NCBI GenBank assembly: GCA_029288835.1
Contig: JARIGN010000013.1
Coordinates: 1-59,707 of the forward strand
Length of the DNA: 59,707 bases
From: Candidatus Kaiserbacteria bacterium
Lineage (GTDB): Bacteria; Patescibacteriota; Minisyncoccia; Phycocordibacterales; Phycocordibacteraceae
Reading direction: 5' to 3'
In this document: in pieces, positions 38,890 through 49,908 of the stretch
Layout of the letters: every line of letters starts with the position of its first letter
Position numbering within the stretch: the first letter of the stretch is position 1
Position numbers and translations under genes: made by a program
The notes under the pieces: model-generated
Databases searched by the model: none
What the model was told of the DNA's origin: nothing
Seen by the model: only the letters and a program-made list of their open reading frames with translations

Positions 38890-38961
38890 TCCGCGGTAGC
38901 TCAGAGGTAGAGCGGCTCGCTGTTAACGAGTTGGTCGTAGGTTCGATCCCTACCCGCGGAG
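38890..38961 (+). tRNA. tRNA-Asn (anticodon GUU), CCA not encoded
   Basis: TCCGCGG-TA-GCTC-AGAGGTA-GAGC-G-GCTCG-CTGTTAA-CGAGT-TGGTC-GTAGG-TTCGATC-CCTAC-CCGCGGA-G cloverleaf. Confidence 0.92.
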
Positions 38962-38966
38962 CCGAG

Positions 38967-38995
38967 TTGACAGATGCTAGGTATTGTGCTATATA
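38967..38995 (+). promoter_or_regulatory. consensus sigma70 promoter directly after tRNA-Asn
   Basis: TTGACA (38967-38972)-N17-TATATA (38990-38995), with TGC extended -10. Confidence 0.65.
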
Positions 38996-39003
38996 AAAGA
39001 CAG

Positions 39004-39029
39004 GATCTACGGACTTCCGTCCGTAGATC
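39004..39029 (+). other. 5'-terminal RNA hairpin of the first cassette transcript
   Basis: GATCTACGGA-CTTCCG-TCCGTAGATC, 10-bp perfect stem starting about 8 nt after the -10. Confidence 0.55.
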
Positions 39030-39066
39030 ATGAACATTATATGGCGCCCAAAGGACGCTAGAACGA

Positions 39067-39210
39067 ATGAAGACTACTCTGACGCTCACCGCGTGGCAAG
39101 CAATCTGTGTAGGTGGCTACCGAGAAGCTGAATACGCCTGCGATTACTATTACGTGGACGGCGTCTGCATCGGCAACAGTGGCTGCTATTACACTGGCCA
39201 TTATCGTTAA
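39067..39210 (+). CDS. candidate 47-aa Tyr/Cys-rich peptide with Gly-Gly-type leader
   Basis: Hand-translated: MKTTLTLTAWQAICVGG-YREAEYACDYYYVDGVCIGNSGCYYTGHYR, TAA 39208-39210; AAGGA 11 nt upstream (long spacing); below ORF-track cutoff. Confidence 0.35.
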   Translation: MKTTLTLTAWQAICVGGYREAEYACDYYYVDGVCIGNSGCYYTGHYR

Positions 39211-39354
39211 AGTCCAACACCCCTTTCAGGGGCATCCTTGAAGCGCAGCAAGAAGTTCATCGGCGGGTATCATCACTGCGAAGTGGTGAGGTGCTGCAGA
39301 CCTTTCAGGTCGGCACCAGAATCTGAATCCAGGTCTGAGCACACCTGTCTGCTC

Positions 39355-39389
39355 CCCCACTTGTCGCAAGATGAGTGGGGTTTTGTTTT
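39355..39389 (+). terminator. intrinsic terminator (end of cassette 1)
   Basis: CCCCACT-(12 nt)-AGTGGGG + TTTTGTTTT. Confidence 0.65.
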
Positions 39390-39434
39390 ATTTATACGTT
39401 CTTATCTCCTCCACCAGACGGAGCAGAGTTGACA
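39390..39434 (+). repeat. junction repeat R1 (decayed tRNA-Asn 3' half + flank)
   Basis: ATTTATACGTTCTTATCTCCTCCACCAGACGGAGCAGAGTTGACA; last 16 nt match 38957-38972 at 15/16. Confidence 0.7.
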
Positions 39435-39457
39435 TACGTTCTTTTGTACTAGAACAT
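39429..39457 (+). promoter_or_regulatory. promoter of cassette 2
   Basis: TTGACA-N17-GAACAT (weak -10). Confidence 0.4.
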
Positions 39458-39484
39458 GCAGACAGAGAAACAGGAGCAACCCAA

Positions 39485-39775
39485 ATGACCCTTATAGACT
39501 GGCTAATCATCGGCCTCTGCGTAGTTCTTACTTCGGGCGAAATATGGTTAACCATGCGGCGCAATCGACACTGGATATACGAGAGCGTTCGGGAGTTTCC
39601 ATTTGAGATACCGTTATTGATCATCCTAATGCTCTTGGCACCCATGGGCTGGGTGCTAGATATACTCTATGAAATGACCGCTTATGATCTGTCTGATCAT
39701 CGATACATATGGCTTACTGTGGGCGCCCTTATTTCAGGCTATTTTACGTACAGAAACATTGTTGCCGGAAGTTGA
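39485..39775 (+). CDS. island ORF, 96-aa three-TM membrane protein
   Basis: ACAGGAGC SD 8 nt before ATG 39485; three hydrophobic helices; followed by terminator. Confidence 0.6.
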   Translation: MTLIDWLIIGLCVVLTSGEIWLTMRRNRHWIYESVREFPFEIPLLIILMLLAPMGWVLDILYEMTAYDLSDHRYIWLTVGALISGYFTYRNIVAGS

Positions 39776-39793
39776 GCACAGACACCTCTGATC

Positions 39794-39848
39794 AGCCCAT
39801 CGCAGAAGTTGTCCATTGAGACGCTTCTCGGTGGGCTTCTTCATTTTC
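39794..39848 (+). terminator. intrinsic terminator (cassette 2)
   Basis: AGCCCATCGCAGAAG / CTTCTCGGTGGGCT long imperfect stem + TCTTCATTTT. Confidence 0.6.
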
Positions 39849-39899
39849 ATCCCACCCACGTTCTAACCTCGTGCAACAGGCGGAGCAGACAAATTGATT
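39849..39899 (+). repeat. junction repeat R2
   Basis: ATCCCACCCACGTTCTAACCTCGTGCAACAGGCGGAGCAGACAAATTGATT; shares ACGTTCTAACCTC with R3 and GCGGAGC-GA with the tRNA junction. Confidence 0.55.
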
Positions 39900-39904
39900 T
39901 TATA

Positions 39905-39913
39905 TGCTATAGT
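39905..39913 (+). promoter_or_regulatory. extended -10 promoter of cassette 3
   Basis: TGCTATAGT. Confidence 0.45.
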
Positions 39914-39946
39914 TCGTGGAAACGTTCATTTACAAAGGTTTGAACG

Positions 39947-40438
39947 ATGCATGGTCTCGCGCGTGCCTTCACTGATCCCGACCGAAGCGCCGCACTTGAA
40001 CATGCGGTCGCCAACATCATCAAGTACTTCTCCCGTAACTCTGAGAGTTTGCATTGGGAGAACTGGGAGAGGAGTAATGTAAGCGGCTTTCGGAGTATTA
40101 CACCGGACGGATTCCTCATTGAGATCCGTAAGTTCTATTGGGCCCGATATGGTTCTCACAACATGCGATGGTCGATGTATGGGTTTAACCCTGGCTCTGT
40201 CGATCATTGGTACTACGTGATTATCAAGAATACTCGTTCCCCACGGAATGGCCAGAAACTGGTTGTTGACGTTGCTCTGCTTCAAGGTGATACATGTTAC
40301 ATCCAAGTACGGAATTTCCACCAACGACTACAGCAGACCTGGCGACAAGGGCCAACGAGACCATATCCGGTTTTTTCGCGACCCTTCCGACTACAACTTG
40401 TTCAAGCTTGCCAGGTGGCTACACAACATGCAGGCTGA
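39947..40438 (+). CDS. island ORF, 163-aa hypothetical protein
   Basis: AAAGG 8 nt before the ATG; Trp/Arg-rich, no motif recognised; terminator follows. Confidence 0.6.
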   Translation: MHGLARAFTDPDRSAALEHAVANIIKYFSRNSESLHWENWERSNVSGFRSITPDGFLIEIRKFYWARYGSHNMRWSMYGFNPGSVDHWYYVIIKNTRSPRNGQKLVVDVALLQGDTCYIQVRNFHQRLQQTWRQGPTRPYPVFSRPFRLQLVQACQVATQHAG

Positions 40439-40450
40439 CTAGAACACTGT

Positions 40451-40479
40451 CGCCCGACTTCGGTCGGGTGGCTTCTTTT
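40451..40479 (+). terminator. intrinsic terminator (cassette 3)
   Basis: CGCCCGAC-TTCG-GTCGGGTG + GCTTCTTTT. Confidence 0.7.
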
Positions 40480-40522
40480 ATATATACGTTCTAACCTCCT
40501 CAACCAAACAGAGCCGAGTGAG
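40476..40522 (+). repeat. junction repeat R3
   Basis: CTTTTATATATACGTTCTAACCTCCTCAACCAAACAGAGCCGAGTGAG; GAGCCGAGT identical to the tRNA flank 38960-38968. Confidence 0.6.
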
Positions 40523-40523
40523 C

Positions 40524-40558
40524 GAAATGAAAAGACCCTTCAAGGGTCTTTTCATTTC
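40524..40558. other. 15-bp perfect hairpin (possible bidirectional terminator / empty cassette)
   Basis: GAAATGAAAAGACCC-TTCAA-GGGTCTTTTCATTTC. Confidence 0.6.
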
Positions 40559-40570
40559 CGAGCGAGGCAA

Positions 40571-40610
40571 CCGCGGGGAAGCTTTGCTTACCCGCGGAGT
40601 AAACTTGACA
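40571..40610 (+). repeat. tRNA-Asn acceptor-stem remnant with exact 11-nt direct repeat, followed by -35
   Basis: CCGCGGG-(13 nt)-CCCGCGG hairpin mimics the acceptor stem; TACCCGCGGAG (40589-40599) = 38951-38961; then TAAAC + TTGACA, same 5-nt spacing as at the tRNA. Confidence 0.75.
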
Positions 40611-40633
40611 TATATTAAATATTATATTATATA
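40605..40633 (+). promoter_or_regulatory. promoter of cassette 4
   Basis: TTGACA-N17-TATATA. Confidence 0.6.
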
Positions 40634-40725
40634 TCTAATTCCCGTTCGTATGAACTGGTCGTTCCGCAAGGAATAAGAGGGTTCGTTTCCGCCCTGGATT
40701 GGAAGCATCTATTGGGAGATACCCA

Positions 40726-41013
40726 ATGTCCGACGTTTTTTCTATCACCAATGGTCCTGACCGTATGTTGCTGGTCATTTCGCTTGTTGAAGGAAATCCA
40801 ACCCCACGAAAGACGGTGACCTTCGAGACTGAGTCGCCAACCGGTCATCTAGAAGTCGCCATTACTGCCCTGGAGCAGGAAGACGGCTCTGGTCATTGCT
40901 GGAACTTCAAGGGTTACGGTAAAGCGGGCCAGATGCGAAGCCAAGTCCACGGCTTCTATCGCACAAACACCCGCAAGGGGTGGTTTGCTTGGGGACCACA
41001 ACGCCCTCACTAA
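40726..41013 (+). CDS. island ORF, 95-aa hypothetical protein
   Basis: GGGAG 7 nt before ATG 40726; MSDVFSITNGPDRML...; ~85-nt 5' UTR; terminator follows. Confidence 0.55.
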   Translation: MSDVFSITNGPDRMLLVISLVEGNPTPRKTVTFETESPTGHLEVAITALEQEDGSGHCWNFKGYGKAGQMRSQVHGFYRTNTRKGWFAWGPQRPH

Positions 41014-41047
41014 CCAATAGGCTCACCCGAACAGCCTCTCAAACGGG

Positions 41048-41080
41048 AACCCTCATGCAATTTTGCATGAGGGTTTTTAT
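41048..41080 (+). terminator. intrinsic terminator (cassette 4)
   Basis: AACCCTCATGCAA / TTGCATGAGGGTT + TTT. Confidence 0.75.
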
Positions 41081-41219
41081 ATAAAGGAATTAAGTTTCTT
41101 TAGAATAGCTATAAATAAAACGCCGAAGGATTTCTCCCCCAGCGTTTGGTATAGGTGCACAGATTTAGAAAAGCCAATTCCAAAGAGGAACGAACCACGG
41201 TGGCTGCTGTGGCGCTTTA

Positions 41220-41228
41220 TGCTAGAGT
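41220..41228 (+). promoter_or_regulatory. extended -10 promoter of cassette 5
   Basis: TGCTAGAGT about 22 nt before the ATG. Confidence 0.35.
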
Positions 41229-41250
41229 TGAAAGTAGACAAGGAGGCACT

Positions 41251-41460
41251 ATGTGCGAAGCATGCGGACCCGATAATCCTGAACGGGTGAAGCCCGAATT
41301 AATGAGTCAGCTAAGGAGCCGACTCGAGCGAAGGATGTCCCAACAAGGCATGAGTGTTGATGAGATGCTTCACTCAGGTGAGCAGCAACCCCATCGCACA
41401 TTTCTTGCGAGGCTTCGCCTCCCTCTCCTCAAGAAACGCCGTCCATTCAGCTGCACCTAA
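41251..41460 (+). CDS. island ORF, 69-aa basic protein
   Basis: Strong AAGGAGG 4 nt before ATG 41251; MCEACGPDNPERV...; terminator follows. Confidence 0.55.
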   Translation: MCEACGPDNPERVKPELMSQLRSRLERRMSQQGMSVDEMLHSGEQQPHRTFLARLRLPLLKKRRPFSCT

Positions 41461-41473
41461 ACTCATATAGTCG

Positions 41474-41497
41474 CCGCCCCTAAAGGGGCGGTTTTTC
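41474..41497 (+). terminator. intrinsic terminator (cassette 5)
   Basis: CCGCCCC-TAAA-GGGGCGG + TTTTT. Confidence 0.8.
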
Positions 41498-41542
41498 TTC
41501 ATTACTATCTCCTTACATGACCTAAGCATAGGAGAGCTGACA
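41497..41542 (+). repeat. junction repeat R4 (weaker)
   Basis: CTTCATTACTATCTCCTTACATGACCTAAGCATAGGAGAGCTGACA; shares TATCTCCT with R1 and GGAG..-TGACA. Confidence 0.4.
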
Positions 41543-41565
41543 AATAGCTGGTCCTACTATATACT
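41537..41565 (+). promoter_or_regulatory. promoter of cassette 6
   Basis: CTGACA-N17-TATACT. Confidence 0.5.
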
Positions 41566-41602
41566 CGCAAGCGGAATAAACCTCAGAAACGGAGATTTCT
41601 TC

Positions 41603-41974
41603 GTGGAAAGCACTGGATTACTTCTCCAAAAGGTAGAGACCTGCACTCTCGCAGAATTTACCCGGTCATTGTACCGACGTGTGGAAAGGGTTGAAATACG
41701 CAACGATTTACCACCCGCGAGCGGAGCACTCCGCCCTGCCGAAGGCACCATGAAGTTTGTTCTGGGAGTTCAAGGAAGGGATGAGCGTGAACGACTCTTG
41801 GTGTTCGCGCACATTGTGCTCTATAGCATATTTGTCGTGCATGGACATCTCGATATTGAAGAGGAAGAACTTCCTTTTTTCGTACCATATGCACAAGACG
41901 GAGCAGCGGGAAGGTTTCTGAACCTCCATTACACCGCGGTCAAGAAACTCTTCGAATCTCGCTATACCGCATAG
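41603..41974 (+). CDS. island ORF, 123-aa hypothetical protein (GTG start)
   Basis: GTG at 41603 with ACGGAG upstream; no motif recognised; terminator follows. Confidence 0.45.
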   Translation: MESTGLLLQKVETCTLAEFTRSLYRRVERVEIRNDLPPASGALRPAEGTMKFVLGVQGRDERERLLVFAHIVLYSIFVVHGHLDIEEEELPFFVPYAQDGAAGRFLNLHYTAVKKLFESRYTA

Positions 41975-41990
41975 TCTCTGGTTCAACGAC

Positions 41991-42021
41991 ATAGCACCAA
42001 TGCCAAAGGTGCTATTTTTTA
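41991..42021 (+). terminator. intrinsic terminator (cassette 6)
   Basis: ATAGCACC-(9 nt)-GGTGCTAT + TTTTTT. Confidence 0.75.
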
Positions 42022-42043
42022 TTGGCGTGTCATACTCACGAGC

Positions 42044-42658
42044 ATGAAGAGGTACGCCGTATGGGGAGGAATTATCCTGCTAATTATTTTCGTACTATTC
42101 TTTCTTAATGAAATCGGCACTCGCTCGGGAGTAACTCGTGAGCAAGTATCAGAAACCTTGCCGGGAGATTCTGTCATACCTGACCCTTGGATTTCTATAG
42201 ATCGCGCAGGTACCCTACCCGCATCAAACCAAACCGCGTGGCCGTGGGTTGAGCAGCTCGGGAAGGATCGGGGTGGCTGGTATGCGCCCCTCTGGCTTGA
42301 AAATATGCTTCACGAGCACAGCGCCTCTACGACCTTACCCCAGTATCAAAATTTGAAGGTCGGGGATGTGGTTCACGACTGGGGAGGAGGCACCCTCATC
42401 GTGCTTGCCCTCTCTCCTACGCACTATGTGGTATATGGCTCGCACCCAGCAAACGCTGCCACCTCCTCTCCTTATGCTTTTACCTGGGCATTGGTTCTTG
42501 AAGATAATACCCCTTCGAGCACCAGCTTCCATCTTCGGCTTCGTATGCAAAAACCAACCCACGGATTCGCGCGCTATGTTCCTCCTTCCCTCCCAGGTCT
42601 CATAGACTACGCAACCGATGTGGTGATGTTTACGGGTCTGCGAGAGAAGCTGAAATGA
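42044..42658 (+). CDS. island ORF, membrane-anchored SRPBCC-like protein, 204 aa
   Basis: N-terminal TM; LPGD...W.W..QLG.DRGGWY...WLEN pattern as in actinobacterial-type SRPBCC/START-like proteins; CATACT -10 only 7 nt before the ATG. Confidence 0.55.
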   Translation: MKRYAVWGGIILLIIFVLFFLNEIGTRSGVTREQVSETLPGDSVIPDPWISIDRAGTLPASNQTAWPWVEQLGKDRGGWYAPLWLENMLHEHSASTTLPQYQNLKVGDVVHDWGGGTLIVLALSPTHYVVYGSHPANAATSSPYAFTWALVLEDNTPSSTSFHLRLRMQKPTHGFARYVPPSLPGLIDYATDVVMFTGLREKLK

Positions 42659-42703
42659 GTTTATTTTGCGAAGAACACGTACCTGACACAACTTCCCCGT
42701 AAG

Positions 42704-42732
42704 TTGACATATTCGAAACTTAACTATTTAAT
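42704..42732 (+). promoter_or_regulatory. promoter of cassette 8
   Basis: TTGACA-N17-TTTAAT (the track ORF 'start' at 42704 is this -35). Confidence 0.55.
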
Positions 42733-42754
42733 TCAAACTAGATATACGGACACT

Positions 42755-42952
42755 ATGGTGGTGACCGCTGTAACAAGAGTAGAGGACGACATGTCAAAAG
42801 AAAGGGCCTTGGAAGCTCAGGAGGAAGCTCAGCTTCATGAGCTTCCTGAAGAAGATGAGAAGTTTGCGCGCGGACTGATTGAAAAGGGCTACACATTTAA
42901 GGCTGCAATGCTTGCGGTCGAACATAGCAAAGACCCTCATGCCCCACCCTAG
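42755..42952 (+). CDS. island ORF, small acidic protein (65 aa, or 53 aa from the ATG at 42791)
   Basis: ATG 42755 is the first after the predicted TSS; ATG 42791 has the better SD (AGAGGA); EEAQLHELPEEDE acidic helix. Confidence 0.45.
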   Translation: MVVTAVTRVEDDMSKERALEAQEEAQLHELPEEDEKFARGLIEKGYTFKAAMLAVEHSKDPHAPP

Positions 42953-42968
42953 GGGCATTACTTTTATT
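42939..42968 (+). terminator. intrinsic terminator (cassette 8)
   Basis: ATGCCCC-ACCCTA-GGGGCAT + TACTTTTATT, overlaps the stop codon. Confidence 0.6.
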
Positions 42969-42994
42969 GTTAATTTTTATATTTATGGTATAGT
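42967..42994 (+). promoter_or_regulatory. promoter of cassette 9
   Basis: TTGTTA-N16-TATAGT with TGG extended -10; followed by 5' hairpin AGGTAGGA-ATTG-TCCTACCT (43002-43021). Confidence 0.55.
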
Positions 42995-43043
42995 TCTCAT
43001 GAGGTAGGAATTGTCCTACCTAAGATGTTTCTGGGGACAATAC

Positions 43044-43346
43044 ATGGAAATGTTCAATGCCGTAATCTCTGCGCCCACGTCCAAGTTCAACAAGGCCGGG
43101 GCGGAGGTAGAAGTCGTCGGCCATATTCTCAAGGATGATCGTGGAGCTGATCTTGCGGCAAAGAGTTATGGCCTGCTCAATGCTGCTTACCGGCATGAGC
43201 TGGAGATCTGCCGCTCCACGGACTCGTCGGGAGTAATCGTAATTCGACGCTTCAGAGCCTTCTCGATGGAGCGTGTGCGTTACGAGGCCCGGGCGCTTGC
43301 ACGCGCCTTTTCCAAGCATCTCGGCGTGGAAGCCGTCGTTCAGTAG
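43044..43346 (+). CDS. island ORF, 100-aa hypothetical protein
   Basis: ATG 43044 after GGGGAC; + strand preferred over the overlapping 155-aa minus ORF because promoter, 5' hairpin and terminator are all on the + strand. Confidence 0.5.
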   Translation: MEMFNAVISAPTSKFNKAGAEVEVVGHILKDDRGADLAAKSYGLLNAAYRHELEICRSTDSSGVIVIRRFRAFSMERVRYEARALARAFSKHLGVEAVVQ

Positions 43347-43377
43347 ATCGGCAGCCTGCGACCCAACTCGATCATCT

Positions 43378-43419
43378 AATCGCAGTGCGAAGGTTTCATT
43401 CCTTCCGCTGCGATTTTTT
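43378..43419 (+). terminator. intrinsic terminator (cassette 9)
   Basis: AATCGCAG...CTGCGATT outer stem with inner GCGAAGG/CCTTCCGC + TTTTTT. Confidence 0.7.
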
Positions 43420-43445
43420 CTTAATGAAGTGTTAGCGCATAAATT

Positions 43446-43474
43446 TTGACTTATTAAGAGAATAAGGTATAAAT
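43446..43474 (+). promoter_or_regulatory. promoter of cassette 10
   Basis: TTGACT-N16-TATAAAT. Confidence 0.55.
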
Positions 43475-43501
43475 ACAACTCATCCAACCAGGAGCGTACT
43501 G

Positions 43502-44146
43502 ATGGTCGAGTGCCTCATCCGACCCCTCCGTGGTTGGATATTTACGTGCTGGCGAAAAGCGCTGCGCGTATGCCGAAATGTAATTTGGTTTGGGCTGTAC
43601 GTAAACATGATTCTCCACTGGACCACGATGCGAAAGCTTCGGGACTACGTGGAGGCAGAGATATGTTCGAAGGGACGTGTCTATAAGGTTACTGCCCACC
43701 TAATGCCCAGACAGGGATGGAGTTCTCAGCAAAAGAATAAGATCCATTGGGATGGTCCTTTGGGTATCACCGTGTGGAGTCCTGAAGGCGATCCACTCCT
43801 GGGTTTAGCACTCGAGTTTTGGGGAAACACCCTTTTTATCCGAGAGATGATTGGGGTGCAGGGCATAAAACCTCCGAAGGACCTGCGGAATGTATGGCCG
43901 CACCTTTTTGTTGCGGCATGCAAGAGGTTCGTCGAGGAAAAGGGATTGCGGGCGCTTACGATAACGCGTGCACGTCCAATCTTCTACCATGACGTAGTGC
44001 CTCCCACCGAGGAGGAGCTAAGACGCCGTGACGCTGAATTTGCTCGGAAAGTGTTGCGCTATGATGGCACGGCAAAACAGAACGGCTTTGTCCTAACCAC
44101 CACCGGCCGATGGCACCGCTGGATACCAAATCAAAATGATCTCTAA
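43502..44146 (+). CDS. island ORF, 214-aa hypothetical protein (weak GNAT-like core)
   Basis: CAGGAGC SD 7 nt before the ATG; LFIREMIGVQG...W..LFVAACKRFVEEKGLRALTI loosely resembles acetyltransferase motif A; largest island ORF. Confidence 0.6.
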   Translation: MVECLIRPLRGWIFTCWRKALRVCRNVIWFGLYVNMILHWTTMRKLRDYVEAEICSKGRVYKVTAHLMPRQGWSSQQKNKIHWDGPLGITVWSPEGDPLLGLALEFWGNTLFIREMIGVQGIKPPKDLRNVWPHLFVAACKRFVEEKGLRALTITRARPIFYHDVVPPTEEELRRRDAEFARKVLRYDGTAKQNGFVLTTTGRWHRWIPNQNDL

Positions 44147-44150
44147 TGCA

Positions 44151-44180
44151 GTCCCGGCATGAAAGCCGGGACTTTTCTTT
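44151..44180 (+). terminator. intrinsic terminator (cassette 10)
   Basis: AGTCCCGGC-ATGAAA-GCCGGGACT + TTTCTTT. Confidence 0.8.
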
Positions 44181-44200
44181 ATGGCACACCTCCTTCGCCT

Positions 44201-44209
44201 GCTATACTA
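44201..44209 (+). promoter_or_regulatory. extended -10 promoter, probably leaderless transcript
   Basis: TGCTATACT ending 5 nt before ATG 44215. Confidence 0.4.
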
Positions 44210-44214
44210 CGGGT

Positions 44215-44367
44215 ATGAAAATTCAATGGACAAAAGTTACCTGGTATTCACAAATAATAGCCATCATTCTTTTTGTGGGTATTTTTTTCCTAGGCATGTG
44301 GATCGGAGAAAAATCCGGAGCAAGCATATGCCAGGCCTTAGGCATTCATACTGCGCAAACGAAGTAG
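44215..44367 (+). CDS. island ORF, 50-aa single-TM peptide
   Basis: MKIQWTKVTWYSQIIAIILFVGIFFLGMWIGEK...; no SD, start sits at the expected TSS. Confidence 0.4.
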   Translation: MKIQWTKVTWYSQIIAIILFVGIFFLGMWIGEKSGASICQALGIHTAQTK

Positions 44368-44417
44368 CCATCTAAAAGAGGTGTATCCTATCTATACACC
44401 CAACACAGGAGCGTGGC

Positions 44418-44651
44418 ATGCAGGCGCAAAACGAAAGCAATACTGCCCAATGCCCCGATAAAGTCTGGTTGGGTCATTGGGAAATATACGCAGCGGGTAG
44501 TCAGTTTCATGGGCGGAAAGGCACGCGACTTGTCTCTGCTCCCGACGAGTTATCAGCGCGATGGAACATAAGAAAAGAAGTGTCTTTCGAGTTTTGTCGC
44601 TCGGACTTTTTGATTGAGTATGTTTCGATCTACTCAATCCATGAGGATTAA
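44418..44651 (+). CDS. island ORF, 77-aa hypothetical protein
   Basis: ACAGGAGCGTGGC-ATG, nearly the same SD context as 43502 (CCAGGAGCGTACTG-ATG); terminator follows. Confidence 0.55.
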   Translation: MQAQNESNTAQCPDKVWLGHWEIYAAGSQFHGRKGTRLVSAPDELSARWNIRKEVSFEFCRSDFLIEYVSIYSIHED

Positions 44652-44671
44652 CCTCTCTCTGTTTTTTATGC

Positions 44672-44703
44672 AACGTCTAGGACCCCACCCTAGACGTTTT
44701 CTT
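44672..44703 (+). terminator. intrinsic terminator (last cassette)
   Basis: AACGTCTAG-(9 nt)-CTAGACGTT + TTCTT. Confidence 0.75.
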
Positions 44704-44730
44704 ATATAACCTCATCTTAATGCAGTATTA

Positions 44731-45282
44731 ATGCTCAACTATATAGACTTTTGGGTAATGAAATCTAAAAAGACCTCCGCTCCAAAAAATGGGACTATCC
44801 AGGACATAACGCGAAAGAACATCGACACTATCGCGCGCGTAGAAGAGATTGCCCAAAAAGAGCGAACTTTTGGTGAGCGAGTCGCGGATAAAGTTGCGGC
44901 CGTGATCGGTAGCTGGACCTTTATCATCACACAAAGCGCGATCCTTGCGTGCTGGGTAGCACTGAATATCGTGGGGTGGGTGCAGCACTGGGACCCTTAC
45001 CCCTTCATTCTTCTTAACCTTGCCCTTTCCTTCCAGGCCGCCTATGCCAGCCCCATTATTATGATGAGCCAAAACCGACAGGCGCGCTTATTTGAGCGCA
45101 GGAATCACCTCGACCTTCAGATTAATCTCCTTTCCGAACAAGAAAATACTGAGATGCTTCGTCTCCTGCGAAAGCTCTGCGAGCATGCAAATATCAGCAT
45201 TGATGACGAGGTGGAGAAGGTGCTTGAAGAGCAAACTAAACCTGACCGCATTCTTAAGGACATTGCGGAGACCGTAACGTAG
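44731..45282 (+). CDS. DUF1003 domain-containing membrane protein
   Basis: GSWTFII...W...N......WDPYPFILLNLALSFQAAYASPIIMMSQNRQ signature; start may be the ATG at 44758. Confidence 0.8.
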   Translation: MLNYIDFWVMKSKKTSAPKNGTIQDITRKNIDTIARVEEIAQKERTFGERVADKVAAVIGSWTFIITQSAILACWVALNIVGWVQHWDPYPFILLNLALSFQAAYASPIIMMSQNRQARLFERRNHLDLQINLLSEQENTEMLRLLRKLCEHANISIDDEVEKVLEEQTKPDRILKDIAETVT

Positions 45283-47793: not shown

Positions 47794-49908
47794 ATGAATT
47801 ACTCATGTTTATACCCGCATGATATAGTCAACCCAACTATGGAGACCGAAACGCAGGGCACGCATTTGCCGAGATTCCTTCGCTATTCCCGCCGCCAATG
47901 GATGGTCTCTGTCTACGGAGGTGTACTTTTTGTAGTGCTCATGTGGCTCTCGGAGCGGTACATTCCCCACCCTTCTACGCTGTTTCCTGCCTCAGCTGTG
48001 GCATTAAGTCTCCTCTTCCTTGAAGGGCTTGAGCTCTGGCCGATCATCTTCCTTGCCTCGTTAGTAGGTGGCATCCTTTCCGGGCTTCCGTTAATGTTTA
48101 TAGGTATACAAGTGGTGAGTCAAACTTCCCTTGCTCTCCTTGGCGCCTGGGTATTGCGAAAGGCGAAAGTCGACCCCATTTTCCGGCGCATGCGAGACAT
48201 GCTGCTCACCATTATGACCTTGGTAGCGGTTTCGCTTATCCCACCCACGCTGACCTCACTCGGGAACATCATAAGTGCGGAGTATCTCCACACGGTATAC
48301 AGCACGGCATCATGGGGTTTGCGCTACACCGGCACCTTGCTTTGCCTTCTCATCATCACGCCATTCCTCCTCAGATGGTGGGCTAAGCCTCGCTTTAGCC
48401 GTACCTTTTTGGAATGGGTTGAGCTTGTTATAGTCTTCGGTCTTCTTGCCGGGATTAGTTTTGTTATCTTTGTGCTTGGTATTGATTCAGTCTCTGCAAT
48501 CCCTACCATCTACTTCCTGCTCCTGCCACTCTTCTGGATTGCCCTTCGTTTGCGCCCACGCTTCGTGACCCTTGCGATGCTGGTAATCCTTTTATTTGCC
48601 TTCAGTGGCATTTATTACAACGTAGGGCTAGCCGCGAGTGCGAATTTCAGTGCAGAACTCTTCCAGGTAGACGAACTCCTCATCGTGTTAAGCATGATCT
48701 TTTATATTATGGTGGCAATTGAAGAAAATCGCCGACTTTCCACCAACCTGATGCGCTCCCACTTGGGCATGCTTGAAAACGCGCTCGCCCGCATTTCATC
48801 AGAATCAAATGCAAAGAATGACTTTATCGCCATTCTTGCCCATGAGCTTCGCAACCCGCTCGCACCTATCATGAGCTCCATCGATCTTTTAAAGCTTAAA
48901 GAAAGCCATGACCCCGAGGAACTCGAAATGCTTACCATGATGGAAAGCATGATGCAGACTGTCCGACGCCTTCTCGATGACCTGCTCGATATTTCGCGTA
49001 TTTCTGAAGGCAAGGTTGAGATCAAGCGTGAGCGCATAGATCTGAGCGAAGTGGTGAGACGCTCAATTATTGCGACCGCACACCACCGCCAAGAGCGCCA
49101 TCAGTCACTTTCTATTCGTACCACGGAAGAGCCACTTTGTGTGCTCGGCGATGCCGTTCGCTTGGAGCAAGTATTTTCGAATCTCCTCACAAATGCTTCA
49201 AAATATTCCAATTCCGGCGACCAAATAACCGTGTCTCTAGAGAAGCATGGAAACTCGGCACAAGTGACGGTCTCTGATAATGGTATTGGCATAGAGCCTT
49301 CTTCCTTGGAAAATATCTTTGTGGCTTTTCACCAGGTAGAGCATGGCGAGCGCAGCAAGAAAGGACTCGGCATTGGCCTAGCGCTCGTGCGAAGCTTCGT
49401 GGAAATGCACCATGGCAGTGTTGTGGCCATGAGTGACGGCATTGGCAAAGGCAGCAAATTTGTCGTACTCCTCCCCCTCTTGCCTCCCCGCTCTTCAGCT
49501 AACCAAAGCCAAAGCACGGAAAATAATGAGGGAGAACTCGATGCTCCTGCAGTAACGCTTAAGGTACTTGTGGTAGATGATAATGATGCGGCAGCCTGGA
49601 GCATTGGTAGACTTCTCGAGCTTCGAGGATGTCGTGTGGAATACGCGTATGATGGTCGTAAAGCAATAGATACCGTCTTCAGCTTCAAGCCGGATGTCAT
49701 TCTGCTCGACCTAGGCCTTCCAGACATGGAAGGCACTCGGGTGGCAAAGACGGTGCGCGCCCGCGGTTATCGGGGCAAAATTATTGCCCTCACCGGCTAC
49801 AGTGGTGAAGGAATCCGCCTCCGTGGCAGCGAGGTAGGTATTGAGCAATATATGGTGAAGCCAGCGAGCCTGGATGACCTTAAAAAGGCCATTCCGGAGA
49901 TTGCCTAA
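47794..49908 (+). CDS. hybrid sensor histidine kinase/response regulator with polytopic (MASE1-like) N-terminal sensor
   Basis: About 8 TM helices, H-box AHELRNPL, N/G boxes (LLTNASKY, DNGIGI, GLGIGLALV), C-terminal receiver VLVVDDN...LLDLGLPDMEG...KP. Confidence 0.9.
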   Translation: MNYSCLYPHDIVNPTMETETQGTHLPRFLRYSRRQWMVSVYGGVLFVVLMWLSERYIPHPSTLFPASAVALSLLFLEGLELWPIIFLASLVGGILSGLPLMFIGIQVVSQTSLALLGAWVLRKAKVDPIFRRMRDMLLTIMTLVAVSLIPPTLTSLGNIISAEYLHTVYSTASWGLRYTGTLLCLLIITPFLLRWWAKPRFSRTFLEWVELVIVFGLLAGISFVIFVLGIDSVSAIPTIYFLLLPLFWIALRLRPRFVTLAMLVILLFAFSGIYYNVGLAASANFSAELFQVDELLIVLSMIFYIMVAIEENRRLSTNLMRSHLGMLENALARISSESNAKNDFIAILAHELRNPLAPIMSSIDLLKLKESHDPEELEMLTMMESMMQTVRRLLDDLLDISRISEGKVEIKRERIDLSEVVRRSIIATAHHRQERHQSLSIRTTEEPLCVLGDAVRLEQVFSNLLTNASKYSNSGDQITVSLEKHGNSAQVTVSDNGIGIEPSSLENIFVAFHQVEHGERSKKGLGIGLALVRSFVEMHHGSVVAMSDGIGKGSKFVVLLPLLPPRSSANQSQSTENNEGELDAPAVTLKVLVVDDNDAAAWSIGRLLELRGCRVEYAYDGRKAIDTVFSFKPDVILLDLGLPDMEGTRVAKTVRARGYRGKIIALTGYSGEGIRLRGSEVGIEQYMVKPASLDDLKKAIPEIA

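Follow-up and report, generated by a model that had tools for sequence, protein, structure and literature searches.

The window analysed here, a stretch of 59,707 nucleotides (59.7 kb) of contig JARIGN010000013.1 from a Candidatus Kaiserbacteria bacterium, belongs to a Paceibacterota chromosome (candidate phyla radiation, CPR) and contains an accessory island next to a tRNA-Asn gene that serves as an integration hotspot. Twelve open reading frames (ORFs) of 47 to 214 amino acids (aa), all on the + strand, lie downstream of the tRNA; a first interpretation made from the sequence alone (the sequence-only reading) had described them as such, and the ORF list bears this out. In the first part of the island, three one-gene modules are separated by copies of a repeat, J, which resembles the end of the tRNA. 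We favor, with a rough probability of 0.55, the reading that these are attachment-site (att-type) junctions left by site-specific insertion at the tRNA-Asn end, J being the element-side att arm and the recombinase being either lost or provided in trans. Names such as L002 or L103 designate the fetched loci and contigs of related genomes that were compared with the window.

Three Modules between tRNA-Asn and a Displaced Flank

The tRNA-Asn(GTT) gene spans 38890–38963 according to ARAGORN or 38890–38961 according to Rfam (69 bits) and has no encoded CCA; it lies on the + strand, as do all the modules, repeats, and ORFs described below. Its 3′ end would be the anchor, on the attB-like side. An exact 9-nt repeat, GAGCCGAGT, has its left copy at 38959–38967, made of the last three nucleotides of the tRNA and six nucleotides of the flank, and runs into a TTGACA (38967–38972). 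Module 1 (38968–39382) comprises a promoter-like TTGACA-N17-TATATA, a 27-nt inverted repeat (38988–39045), ORF1 (39067–39210), a 145-nt non-coding tail, and a terminator (39355–39380). It is followed by the J1 repeat, ACGTTCTTATCTCCTCCACCAGACGGAGCAGAGT (39388–39432), the end of which overlaps the TTGACA of 39429–39434, and by module 2 (39435–39844), with ORF2 (39485–39775, 96 aa) and a terminator at 39811–39836. The J2 repeat (39846–39891) overlaps CAGACA-N16-TGnTATAGT, the promoter-like site of ORF3; module 3 (39892–40472) contains ORF3 itself (39947–40438, 163 aa; 36% identical to homolog P0086) and a terminator (40449–40472). The J3 repeat (40474–40521) ends in the right copy of GAGCCGAGT (40511–40519) and would represent the attR-like junction. 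The layout is the same in each module: core, promoter-like site, ORF, terminator, J arm, and core.

What lies beyond J3 is informative as to the origin of the block. Positions 40510–40585, which hold CCGAGT, a perfect terminator hairpin with 17-bp arms (40524–40558), GAGCGAGG, and AACCGCGGGG, align with the sequence found directly after tRNA-Asn in L081 (whose tRNA is 95% identical) and in L010, as well as with the flank in L072 and L020; the alignment scores are 30–47, for a shuffle maximum of 22–26. Because this segment is homologous to the sequence right after tRNA-Asn in relatives, it is the displaced ancestral flank, and 38968–40519 (1,552 nt; modules of 462, 462, and 628 bp) is an insertion between the tRNA and that flank, bounded by the exact GAGCCGAGT direct repeat.

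The interiors of the units show no similarity to one another, with no interior local alignment above its shuffles, and no paralogy was found at the protein level among the array ORFs of the window, L092, L093, and L103. This bears on another possible origin, a local tandem duplication of a gene with its intergenic region, in which the coding part diverged fast and the intergenic part was conserved. Such a duplication would account for the start-to-start spacing of the junctions, which is 462 nt both from J0 (the junction at the tRNA itself) to J1 and from J1 to J2 (38958–39420–39882), and for the 83% identity between J1 and J3. Units 1 and 2 placed in register are, however, 30% identical, which is background, and J is shared between genomes in which the genes are unrelated; together with the dissimilar interiors and proteins, this led us to reject the duplication as highly improbable. 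The equal spacing of units that share no sequence may be a coincidence or reflect a size constraint.

Two of the module genes call for a comment. ORF1 codes for a 47-aa Cys-rich peptide with GG at the end of its first 17 residues, as in a double-glycine leader; the inverted repeat with 27-nt arms precedes it in the leader, and 145 nt are non-coding between the ORF and the terminator. The product may be a bacteriocin-like peptide or a small RNA. ORF2 is read, from its hydrophobic sequence, as a putative membrane protein.

The J Repeat Is a Family Distinct from Decayed tRNA Ends

Five copies of the tRNA junction, numbered here J0 to J4 from the tRNA onward, had been reported by the sequence-only reading, and all five were found in place. 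The copy at 39419–39434 (15/16) is the only other match of the window to the junction at ≤3 mismatches (0.44 expected), and the 11-mer TACCCGCGGAG occurs exactly at 38951 and 40589. Smith-Waterman alignment of the tRNA and its flank with the island gave scores of 30 (40589–40633) and 28 (39395–39434), while 200 dinucleotide shuffles gave a mean of 20.4 (standard deviation 1.8) and a maximum of 28. Set against shuffled controls, the likeness is beyond chance, as had been supposed; the repeats are real, and they are confined to 38957–40599, with none among ORF4–ORF12. The repeat-bounded cassette array proposed for the whole island is, thus, retained for three units (ORF1–ORF3) in the first 1.7 kb and abandoned for ORF4–ORF12, which have no junction repeats.

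The repeats are also longer than first reported. They form a 47-nt family, J, with copies at 39383–39429, 39845–39891 (62%), and 40473–40519 (83%); the sequences GCGGAGCAGAC and CAGAGCCGAGTG, originally listed as junction copies, correspond to the right-hand ends of complete J copies. J has the consensus CAGGTTCTAAC-N12-GCGGAGCAGAGT (alignment A1), in which the first block resembles the T-loop GGTTCGATC and the second block is the tRNA-Asn acceptor 3′ strand with its discriminator. Among the 134 tRNAs of the fetched loci, the 3′ end GCGGAG is unique to tRNA-Asn. The J arm, thus, resembles the T-loop and acceptor end and is 5 nt longer: the distance from GTTCTAAC to GCGGAGC is exactly 20 nt in the three window J copies, in L002, in L027, and in several copies of L093, versus 15 nt in the tRNA by direct count. 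Since this 5-nt expansion is fixed and shared across genomes, the copies are not independently decayed tRNA ends, and the initial description as “decayed copies of this tRNA’s end” has to be replaced by that of a distinct family common to several genomes. It had further been proposed that each junction copy supplies the −35 element of the next promoter; this holds for J0, J1, and J4, the only copies that supply TTGACA, and not for the others.

J is asymmetric and not palindromic; an apparent palindrome around J1 was rejected, as it did not hold for J2. In the window, all three J copies fall within 1.2 kb, the remaining 58 kb being free of them. Two further J-like matches were discarded, one at 41494–41513, which is not significant, and one at 41879–41906 (28 nt, 75%, inside ORF6), which is explained by protein-coding conservation. 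Matches of this kind are what would be expected if the junction likeness simply arose by chance in AT-rich promoter and terminator sequence. The shuffle controls, nhmmer E-values reaching 1e-9, and the 20-nt spacing fixed across genomes argue against this explanation, which we rejected as having practically no chance of being right.

J in Related Genomes

A J profile was built from six copies and later refined, and 816 kb were searched with it. J is present in at least six related genomes; matches outside the first training set were found in L027 (E = 4e-5), L092 (copy L092c, 9e-4), L002 (3e-3), and L093 (4e-3). Two kinds of setting emerge. In arrays, J stands between small genes: L092, the contig with an ORF6 homolog, has three copies in 2.4 kb between small co-oriented ORFs, and in L093, 11 copies are spread over 12 kb of small unannotated genes, and the neighboring 8 kb, with ordinary genes, has none. 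At tRNA-Asn, J closes islands of 0.3, 3.4, and 11 kb: in L002, the tRNA is followed by one 69-aa ORF and then by J, 296 nt away; in L103, which has the same left synteny as the window and an identical tRNA-Asn, 3.4 kb with six to seven different co-oriented ORFs end in one J; in L027, 11 kb coding for a DNA methylase, a ResIII helicase, an HNH endonuclease, and a SocA antitoxin separate tRNA-Asn from J, beyond which lies a core gene. No island ORF of the window recurs downstream of tRNA-Asn in any relative, and L033 and L077 have recombinase elements there instead; the variation in content between relatives foreseen by the sequence-only reading is, thus, observed. Altogether, the distribution of J across genomes suggests a compact, recombinase-less form of gene capture.

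These settings can be confronted with the strong form of the initial interpretation, namely an active, integron-like platform in which single-gene circles, with J and the promoter as att site, are inserted and excised one by one at tRNA-Asn by a recombinase encoded elsewhere, so that cassette number and order vary by strain. Several observations are in its favor: the common layout of the three units (462, 462, and 628 bp), the single small ORF between tRNA-Asn and J in L002, the presence of J after almost every small gene of L093 and L092, the genes being unrelated, and the ORF6 homolog of L092, which is also preceded by J while its neighbors differ. On the other hand, no cassette was seen twice in near-identical form, an ORF3 homolog stands alone between the core genes for penicillin-binding protein 2 and GreA without J, and the contigs with ORF9 homologs have the same order in 22 of 22 cases. 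No recombinase is linked to J, an identity of only 62% between J2 and J1 points to junctions that are old and fixed, and L103 and L027 are multi-gene islands with a single J. We consider an active platform rather doubtful.

J might also be a cis-acting element marking the boundary of transcription units, either a protein-binding site or an insulator between a terminator and the next promoter, that spread together with small genes (“promoter propagation”), its limited likeness to the tRNA being incidental. J always comes just after the T-run of a terminator, TTGACA often follows GAGC after 4–5 nt (J0, J1, L092a, L092c, and L002), and the conservation of J across genomes is stronger than expected of a neutral scar. 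Yet J3, the J copies of L103 and L027, and L093_597 run into a terminator or a convergent gene rather than a promoter; a single J at the far end of the multi-gene tRNA-Asn islands of L103 and L027 fits a boundary scar and not a per-gene regulator; the GCGGAGC block matches only tRNA-Asn; and the insertion is bounded by a direct repeat. A boundary element is, in our opinion, improbable.

Recombinases at the tRNA-Asn Hotspot

The same tRNA end is a target of recombinase elements in the clade. Nineteen related loci have an ORF for a serine recombinase of 498–570 aa on the opposite strand, reading into the 3′ end of tRNA-Asn; the gene overlaps the tRNA by 11 nt in 18 loci (L009, L012, L023, L024, L031, L033, L039, L042, L044, L045, L049, L076, L077, L079, L080, L082, L083, and L087) and by 31 nt in L084. 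Of the 19 proteins, 18 end in LRG*, and it can be observed that this LRG and the stop codon are encoded by the T-stem and acceptor sequence of the tRNA itself. The L033 protein has the Resolvase, Recombinase, and Zn_ribbon_recom domains, and L023 and L083 contain a 6.7-kb recombinase element with a distal CCTACCCGCGGAG repeat. In L106, a C-terminal fragment of a tyrosine integrase lies beside tRNA-Asn, which is direct evidence of integration followed by decay.

Nothing comparable was found in the window. Searches for recombinase, transposase, and relaxase families were negative across its 59.7 kb; no ORF of at least 150 aa matched an integrase, transposase, or resolvase family, PF00589 included; and tblastn of the 19 serine recombinases and of the tyrosine-integrase fragment against the window returned only noise and no relic. 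The initial observation that no recombinase is in view in these 59.7 kb is confirmed.

Other features were noted at tRNA-Asn in these loci. Group I introns (RF00028, 70–87 bits) occupy the anticodon loop of tRNA-Asn in L020 (674–948), L029 (7433–7709), and L063 (687–1060), and an intron of about 0.8 kb was read from the sequence of L106, with a 131-aa ORF having only a sub-threshold HNH match. “Partial tRNA” matches in a metagenome scan were rejected as att sites, being intron-containing tRNA-Asn genes. L016 and L032 have arrays of about 20 tRNAs around a tRNA-Asn-like gene with a long extra arm and were picked up only via a shared 24-nt 3′ end; their layout looks phage-like.

Proposed Mechanism and Its Weak Points

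Under the favored reading of site-specific insertion at the tRNA-Asn end, J would be the element-borne arm and the core of an attachment site, forming an attR- or attP-type junction. A module would consist of the core, a promoter-ORF-terminator-J arm, and the core again; modules 1–3 would have been acquired in one to three events of site-specific recombination at the tRNA end, through an enzyme now lost or encoded elsewhere, most likely one of the large serine recombinases for which this tRNA end is a target in the clade. In large serine integrases, the motif bound by the zinc-ribbon domain lies 5 bp further from the crossover, at the center of the site, in attP than in attB (PMC3783163). The geometry of J and the tRNA (20 versus 15 nt) would, by analogy, fit this attP-versus-attB rule.

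The modules may be one-gene units captured as such or stumps of larger decayed elements. As for the serial capture of one-gene modules first proposed, the part that can be kept is that the block of modules 1–3 is an insertion and that J separates unrelated genes elsewhere; independent mobility of single cassettes would be a further, hypothetical step. In its fullest version, the idea would amount to a CPR gene-cassette system, in which one-gene circles of about 0.3–0.6 kb, each with promoter and terminator and a tRNA-Asn-mimicking att site (attP-type, +5 bp), are inserted one after another, either at tRNA-Asn or into earlier junctions, through large serine recombinases acting in trans from co-resident tRNA-Asn elements, giving integron-like arrays with neither integron integrase nor attC hairpins. 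We regard such a system as unlikely.

Several points weigh against att-type junctions. Only three of the nine nucleotides of the bounding repeat belong to the tRNA. The core sites of serine and tyrosine recombinases are normally imperfect palindromes, and no inverted partner of GTTCTAAC was found within 75 nt to the right in the 20 J copies searched. In real recombinase elements, the attR arm is shifted by 6 nt (L023) or 0 nt (L024), so the shift is not always 5. Since attL and attR are not substrates of canonical serine integrases, tandem accretion would need an atypical enzyme. No recombinase or relic of one was found in the window or in any fetched J-bearing locus, the J patterns had no match in viral contigs, and neither a near-identical cassette in two contexts nor an empty or circular form was seen. 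One should also bear in mind that the J model was partly trained on copies that it scores.

A Vestigial Element Downstream of the Modules

The last of the five junction copies, an exact 11-mer in a hairpin, is of another nature. At 40573–40633, a hairpin CCGCGGG-N13-CCCGCGG with TACCCGCGGAG (40589–40599) is followed by N5-TTGACA and an AT-rich −10 region. In about 20 of 85 tRNA-Asn loci, a tRNA-like element of 106–150 nt comes after the tRNA and its terminator. It has CTCCGCGG(G) at its start, GT(G)TAGGGATCGAA inside, and CCCTACCCGCGGAG at its end, often with N5-TTGACA next. The consensus structure comprises a closing helix CTCCGCGG/CCGCGGAG, a TAGGG/CCCTA helix, and inner hairpins; compensatory changes occur at 10 pairs, and a TGACGA loop is conserved. 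Since no Rfam family matches it, it may be an undescribed RNA or DNA element. It comes directly after tRNA-Asn in L029, L070, L063, L041, L054, L071, L020, L072, L043, L010, and L089, and is sometimes in tandem; L029 has two identical 190-nt repeats.

Because window positions 40589–40633 align with the end of this element and its promoter in L043 (score 35, shuffle maximum 25), the hairpin and 11-mer are an internally shortened vestige of the element, ancestral to the locus, and not an integration scar. The 11-mer, thus, loses its initial status as a junction copy: it is the remnant of a structured element, conserved in the clade, whose usual place is after tRNA-Asn.

The Other Island Genes and Their Setting

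The remaining ORFs of the island are ORF4 (40726–41013), ORF5 (41251–41460), ORF6 (41603–41974), ORF7 (42044–42658, SRPBCC-like), ORF8 (42791–42952), ORF9 (43044–43346), ORF10 (43502–44146, GNAT-like fold), ORF11 (44215–44367), and ORF12 (44418–44651). They are ordinary lineage-specific variable genes, mostly monocistronic, outside the repeat-bounded array. Only ORF7 had been assigned to a recognizable family, and its SRPBCC-like character stands; an exhaustive protein search found homologs for five ORFs in all (ORF3, ORF6, ORF7, ORF9, and ORF10) and none for the other seven. ORF7 belongs to a very large family, the longer members of which match Polyketide_cyc2 (SRPBCC). ORF10 belongs to a mid-sized family without a Pfam model; its predicted structure (predicted local distance difference test, pLDDT, 90.6) combines an N-terminal hairpin of two long helices with a GNAT/p300-like acetyltransferase fold, at a weak template modeling score (TM-score) of 0.3–0.47. 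ORF3, ORF6, and ORF9 have one or two distant relatives each. The best homologs of the ORFs are 36–65% identical and found in unrelated contexts. Exact-protein look-ups of the window proteins found none on record, and there is no support for a phage origin, as Pfam and PHROGs gave no matches on the island ORFs.

Most units are predicted to be self-contained, in line with the sequence-only reading. Under strict rules, a sigma-70-like site precedes 7 of the 12 ORFs, compared with 1.68 ± 1.19 in 300 shuffles (maximum 6); the T6 rule excludes the TTGACA-N17-TATATA sites of ORF1 and ORF4, plainly promoter-like as they are. By reading the sequence, we found a clear Shine-Dalgarno motif for nine ORFs and a hairpin with T-run on the + strand after ten, and 17 terminator-like sites were counted, when 8.6 ± 3.1 were expected. 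The promoter-like −10 elements of ORF7 (42027–42044) and ORF11 (44203–44215) end 6–7 nt before the start codon, which suggests leaderless mRNAs for these two genes.

Upstream of tRNA-Asn are def, fmt, hpf, and a small glutaredoxin-like (grx) gene, the closest homologs of which, in L101 and L102, have no adjacent tRNA-Asn, the contig of a third, L105, being too short for this comparison. Downstream of ORF12 come a DUF1003 gene (44731–45282) and a VTT/DedA gene, and the remaining genes of the window are those of a core chromosome: cysS, dnaB, recR, a mur ligase, penicillin-binding proteins, mraZ/W, lysS, greA, mreBC, frr, a murA-like gene, and priA. The nearest species representative has an fmt 64% identical to that of the window, and the nearest contig found, L103, one that is 70.6% identical. 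The closest homologs of the DUF1003 gene are 60–68% identical and include Verrucomicrobia, Planctomycetes, and other non-CPR bacteria; with other phyla among its best homologs, this gene is uninformative for synteny on the right flank. Since a histidine kinase gene of L002, 48% identical to window positions 47794–49908, adjoins tRNA-Asn, the region that varies between these genomes probably reaches from 38964 to about 47.8 kb.

Comparison with Known Systems

The genomes of CPR bacteria are tiny and their way of life is host-dependent; classical mobile elements are believed to be few in them, and little is understood of the ways in which accessory genes are acquired and shuffled. We found nothing relevant in the literature on CPR integrons or cassettes. 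A conserved tRNA-mimicking junction would be a searchable marker of gene flux in the CPR radiation and would make the mechanism testable, as recombination of J with tRNA-Asn by the serine recombinases of the clade. If the units are truly captured gene by gene, the integron problem would have been solved a second time and independently, each cassette being expression-ready; even conservatively, the locus illustrates how a patchwork of orphan genes is built at one tRNA through integration and decay.

The locus shares with tandem tRNA islands an insertion at the 3′ end of a tRNA that stays intact, a distal repeat, and several successive junctions; in relatives, the target has proven to be a hotspot, and the inserted DNA lies between the intact tRNA and its former 3′ flank. 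It differs from them in its units, which are 0.46–0.63 kb long with one gene and no integrase, and in its distal repeat, a conserved look-alike expanded by 5 nt, of which the exact repeat holds three tRNA bases.

In the staphylococcal cassette chromosome (SCC), the large serine recombinases CcrAB and CcrC act at the 3′ end of orfX/rlmH; some SCC elements have no recombinase of their own and are mobilized in trans. As here, the target is of the serine-recombinase type at the 3′ end of a conserved gene, and tandem elements lie between short direct repeats. SCC composite islands and pseudo-SCC elements devoid of ccr have been described (PMC9430635, PMC3900703). SCC units are, however, kilobases to tens of kilobases long, their target is not a tRNA, and no Ccr-like gene is linked to J.

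Integrons and CALINs (clusters of attC sites lacking integron integrases) are comparable for their co-oriented, unrelated, mostly one-gene units with a recurring site in between and, as to CALINs, for the lack of a nearby integrase. In contrast to attC (R″-L″...L′-R′, ending in GTTRRRY), J has no imperfect palindrome and no R or L boxes; the units described here have their own promoter-like sites and terminators, whereas integron cassettes are mostly promoterless; and there is no intI or attI, the site being tRNA-like.

The rAID (recombinase-associated acquired interbacterial defense) arrays of Bacteroidales, the formation of which is described as not yet clear (PMC12247911), are defined by an adjacent tyrosine recombinase and orphan immunity genes, neither of which was found here, and have no tRNA anchor. 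IMEX (integrative mobile elements exploiting Xer) at dif, which use the host XerCD, are likewise recombinase-less elements in tandem at one site with an enzyme encoded elsewhere; the site here is the tRNA-Asn end instead of dif, and J lacks the dif-like 11-6-11 architecture. The two inverted half-sites around a central dinucleotide, typical of the att sites of large serine recombinases, were not detected at J, and, unlike repetitive extragenic palindromic (REP) sequences and miniature inverted-repeat transposable elements (MITEs), J is neither palindromic nor dispersed: in the window and in L093, it is clustered in islands and arrays. By analogy, the locus would, thus, be a variant akin both to tandem tRNA islands and SCC composite islands and to arrays of the integron or rAID kind.

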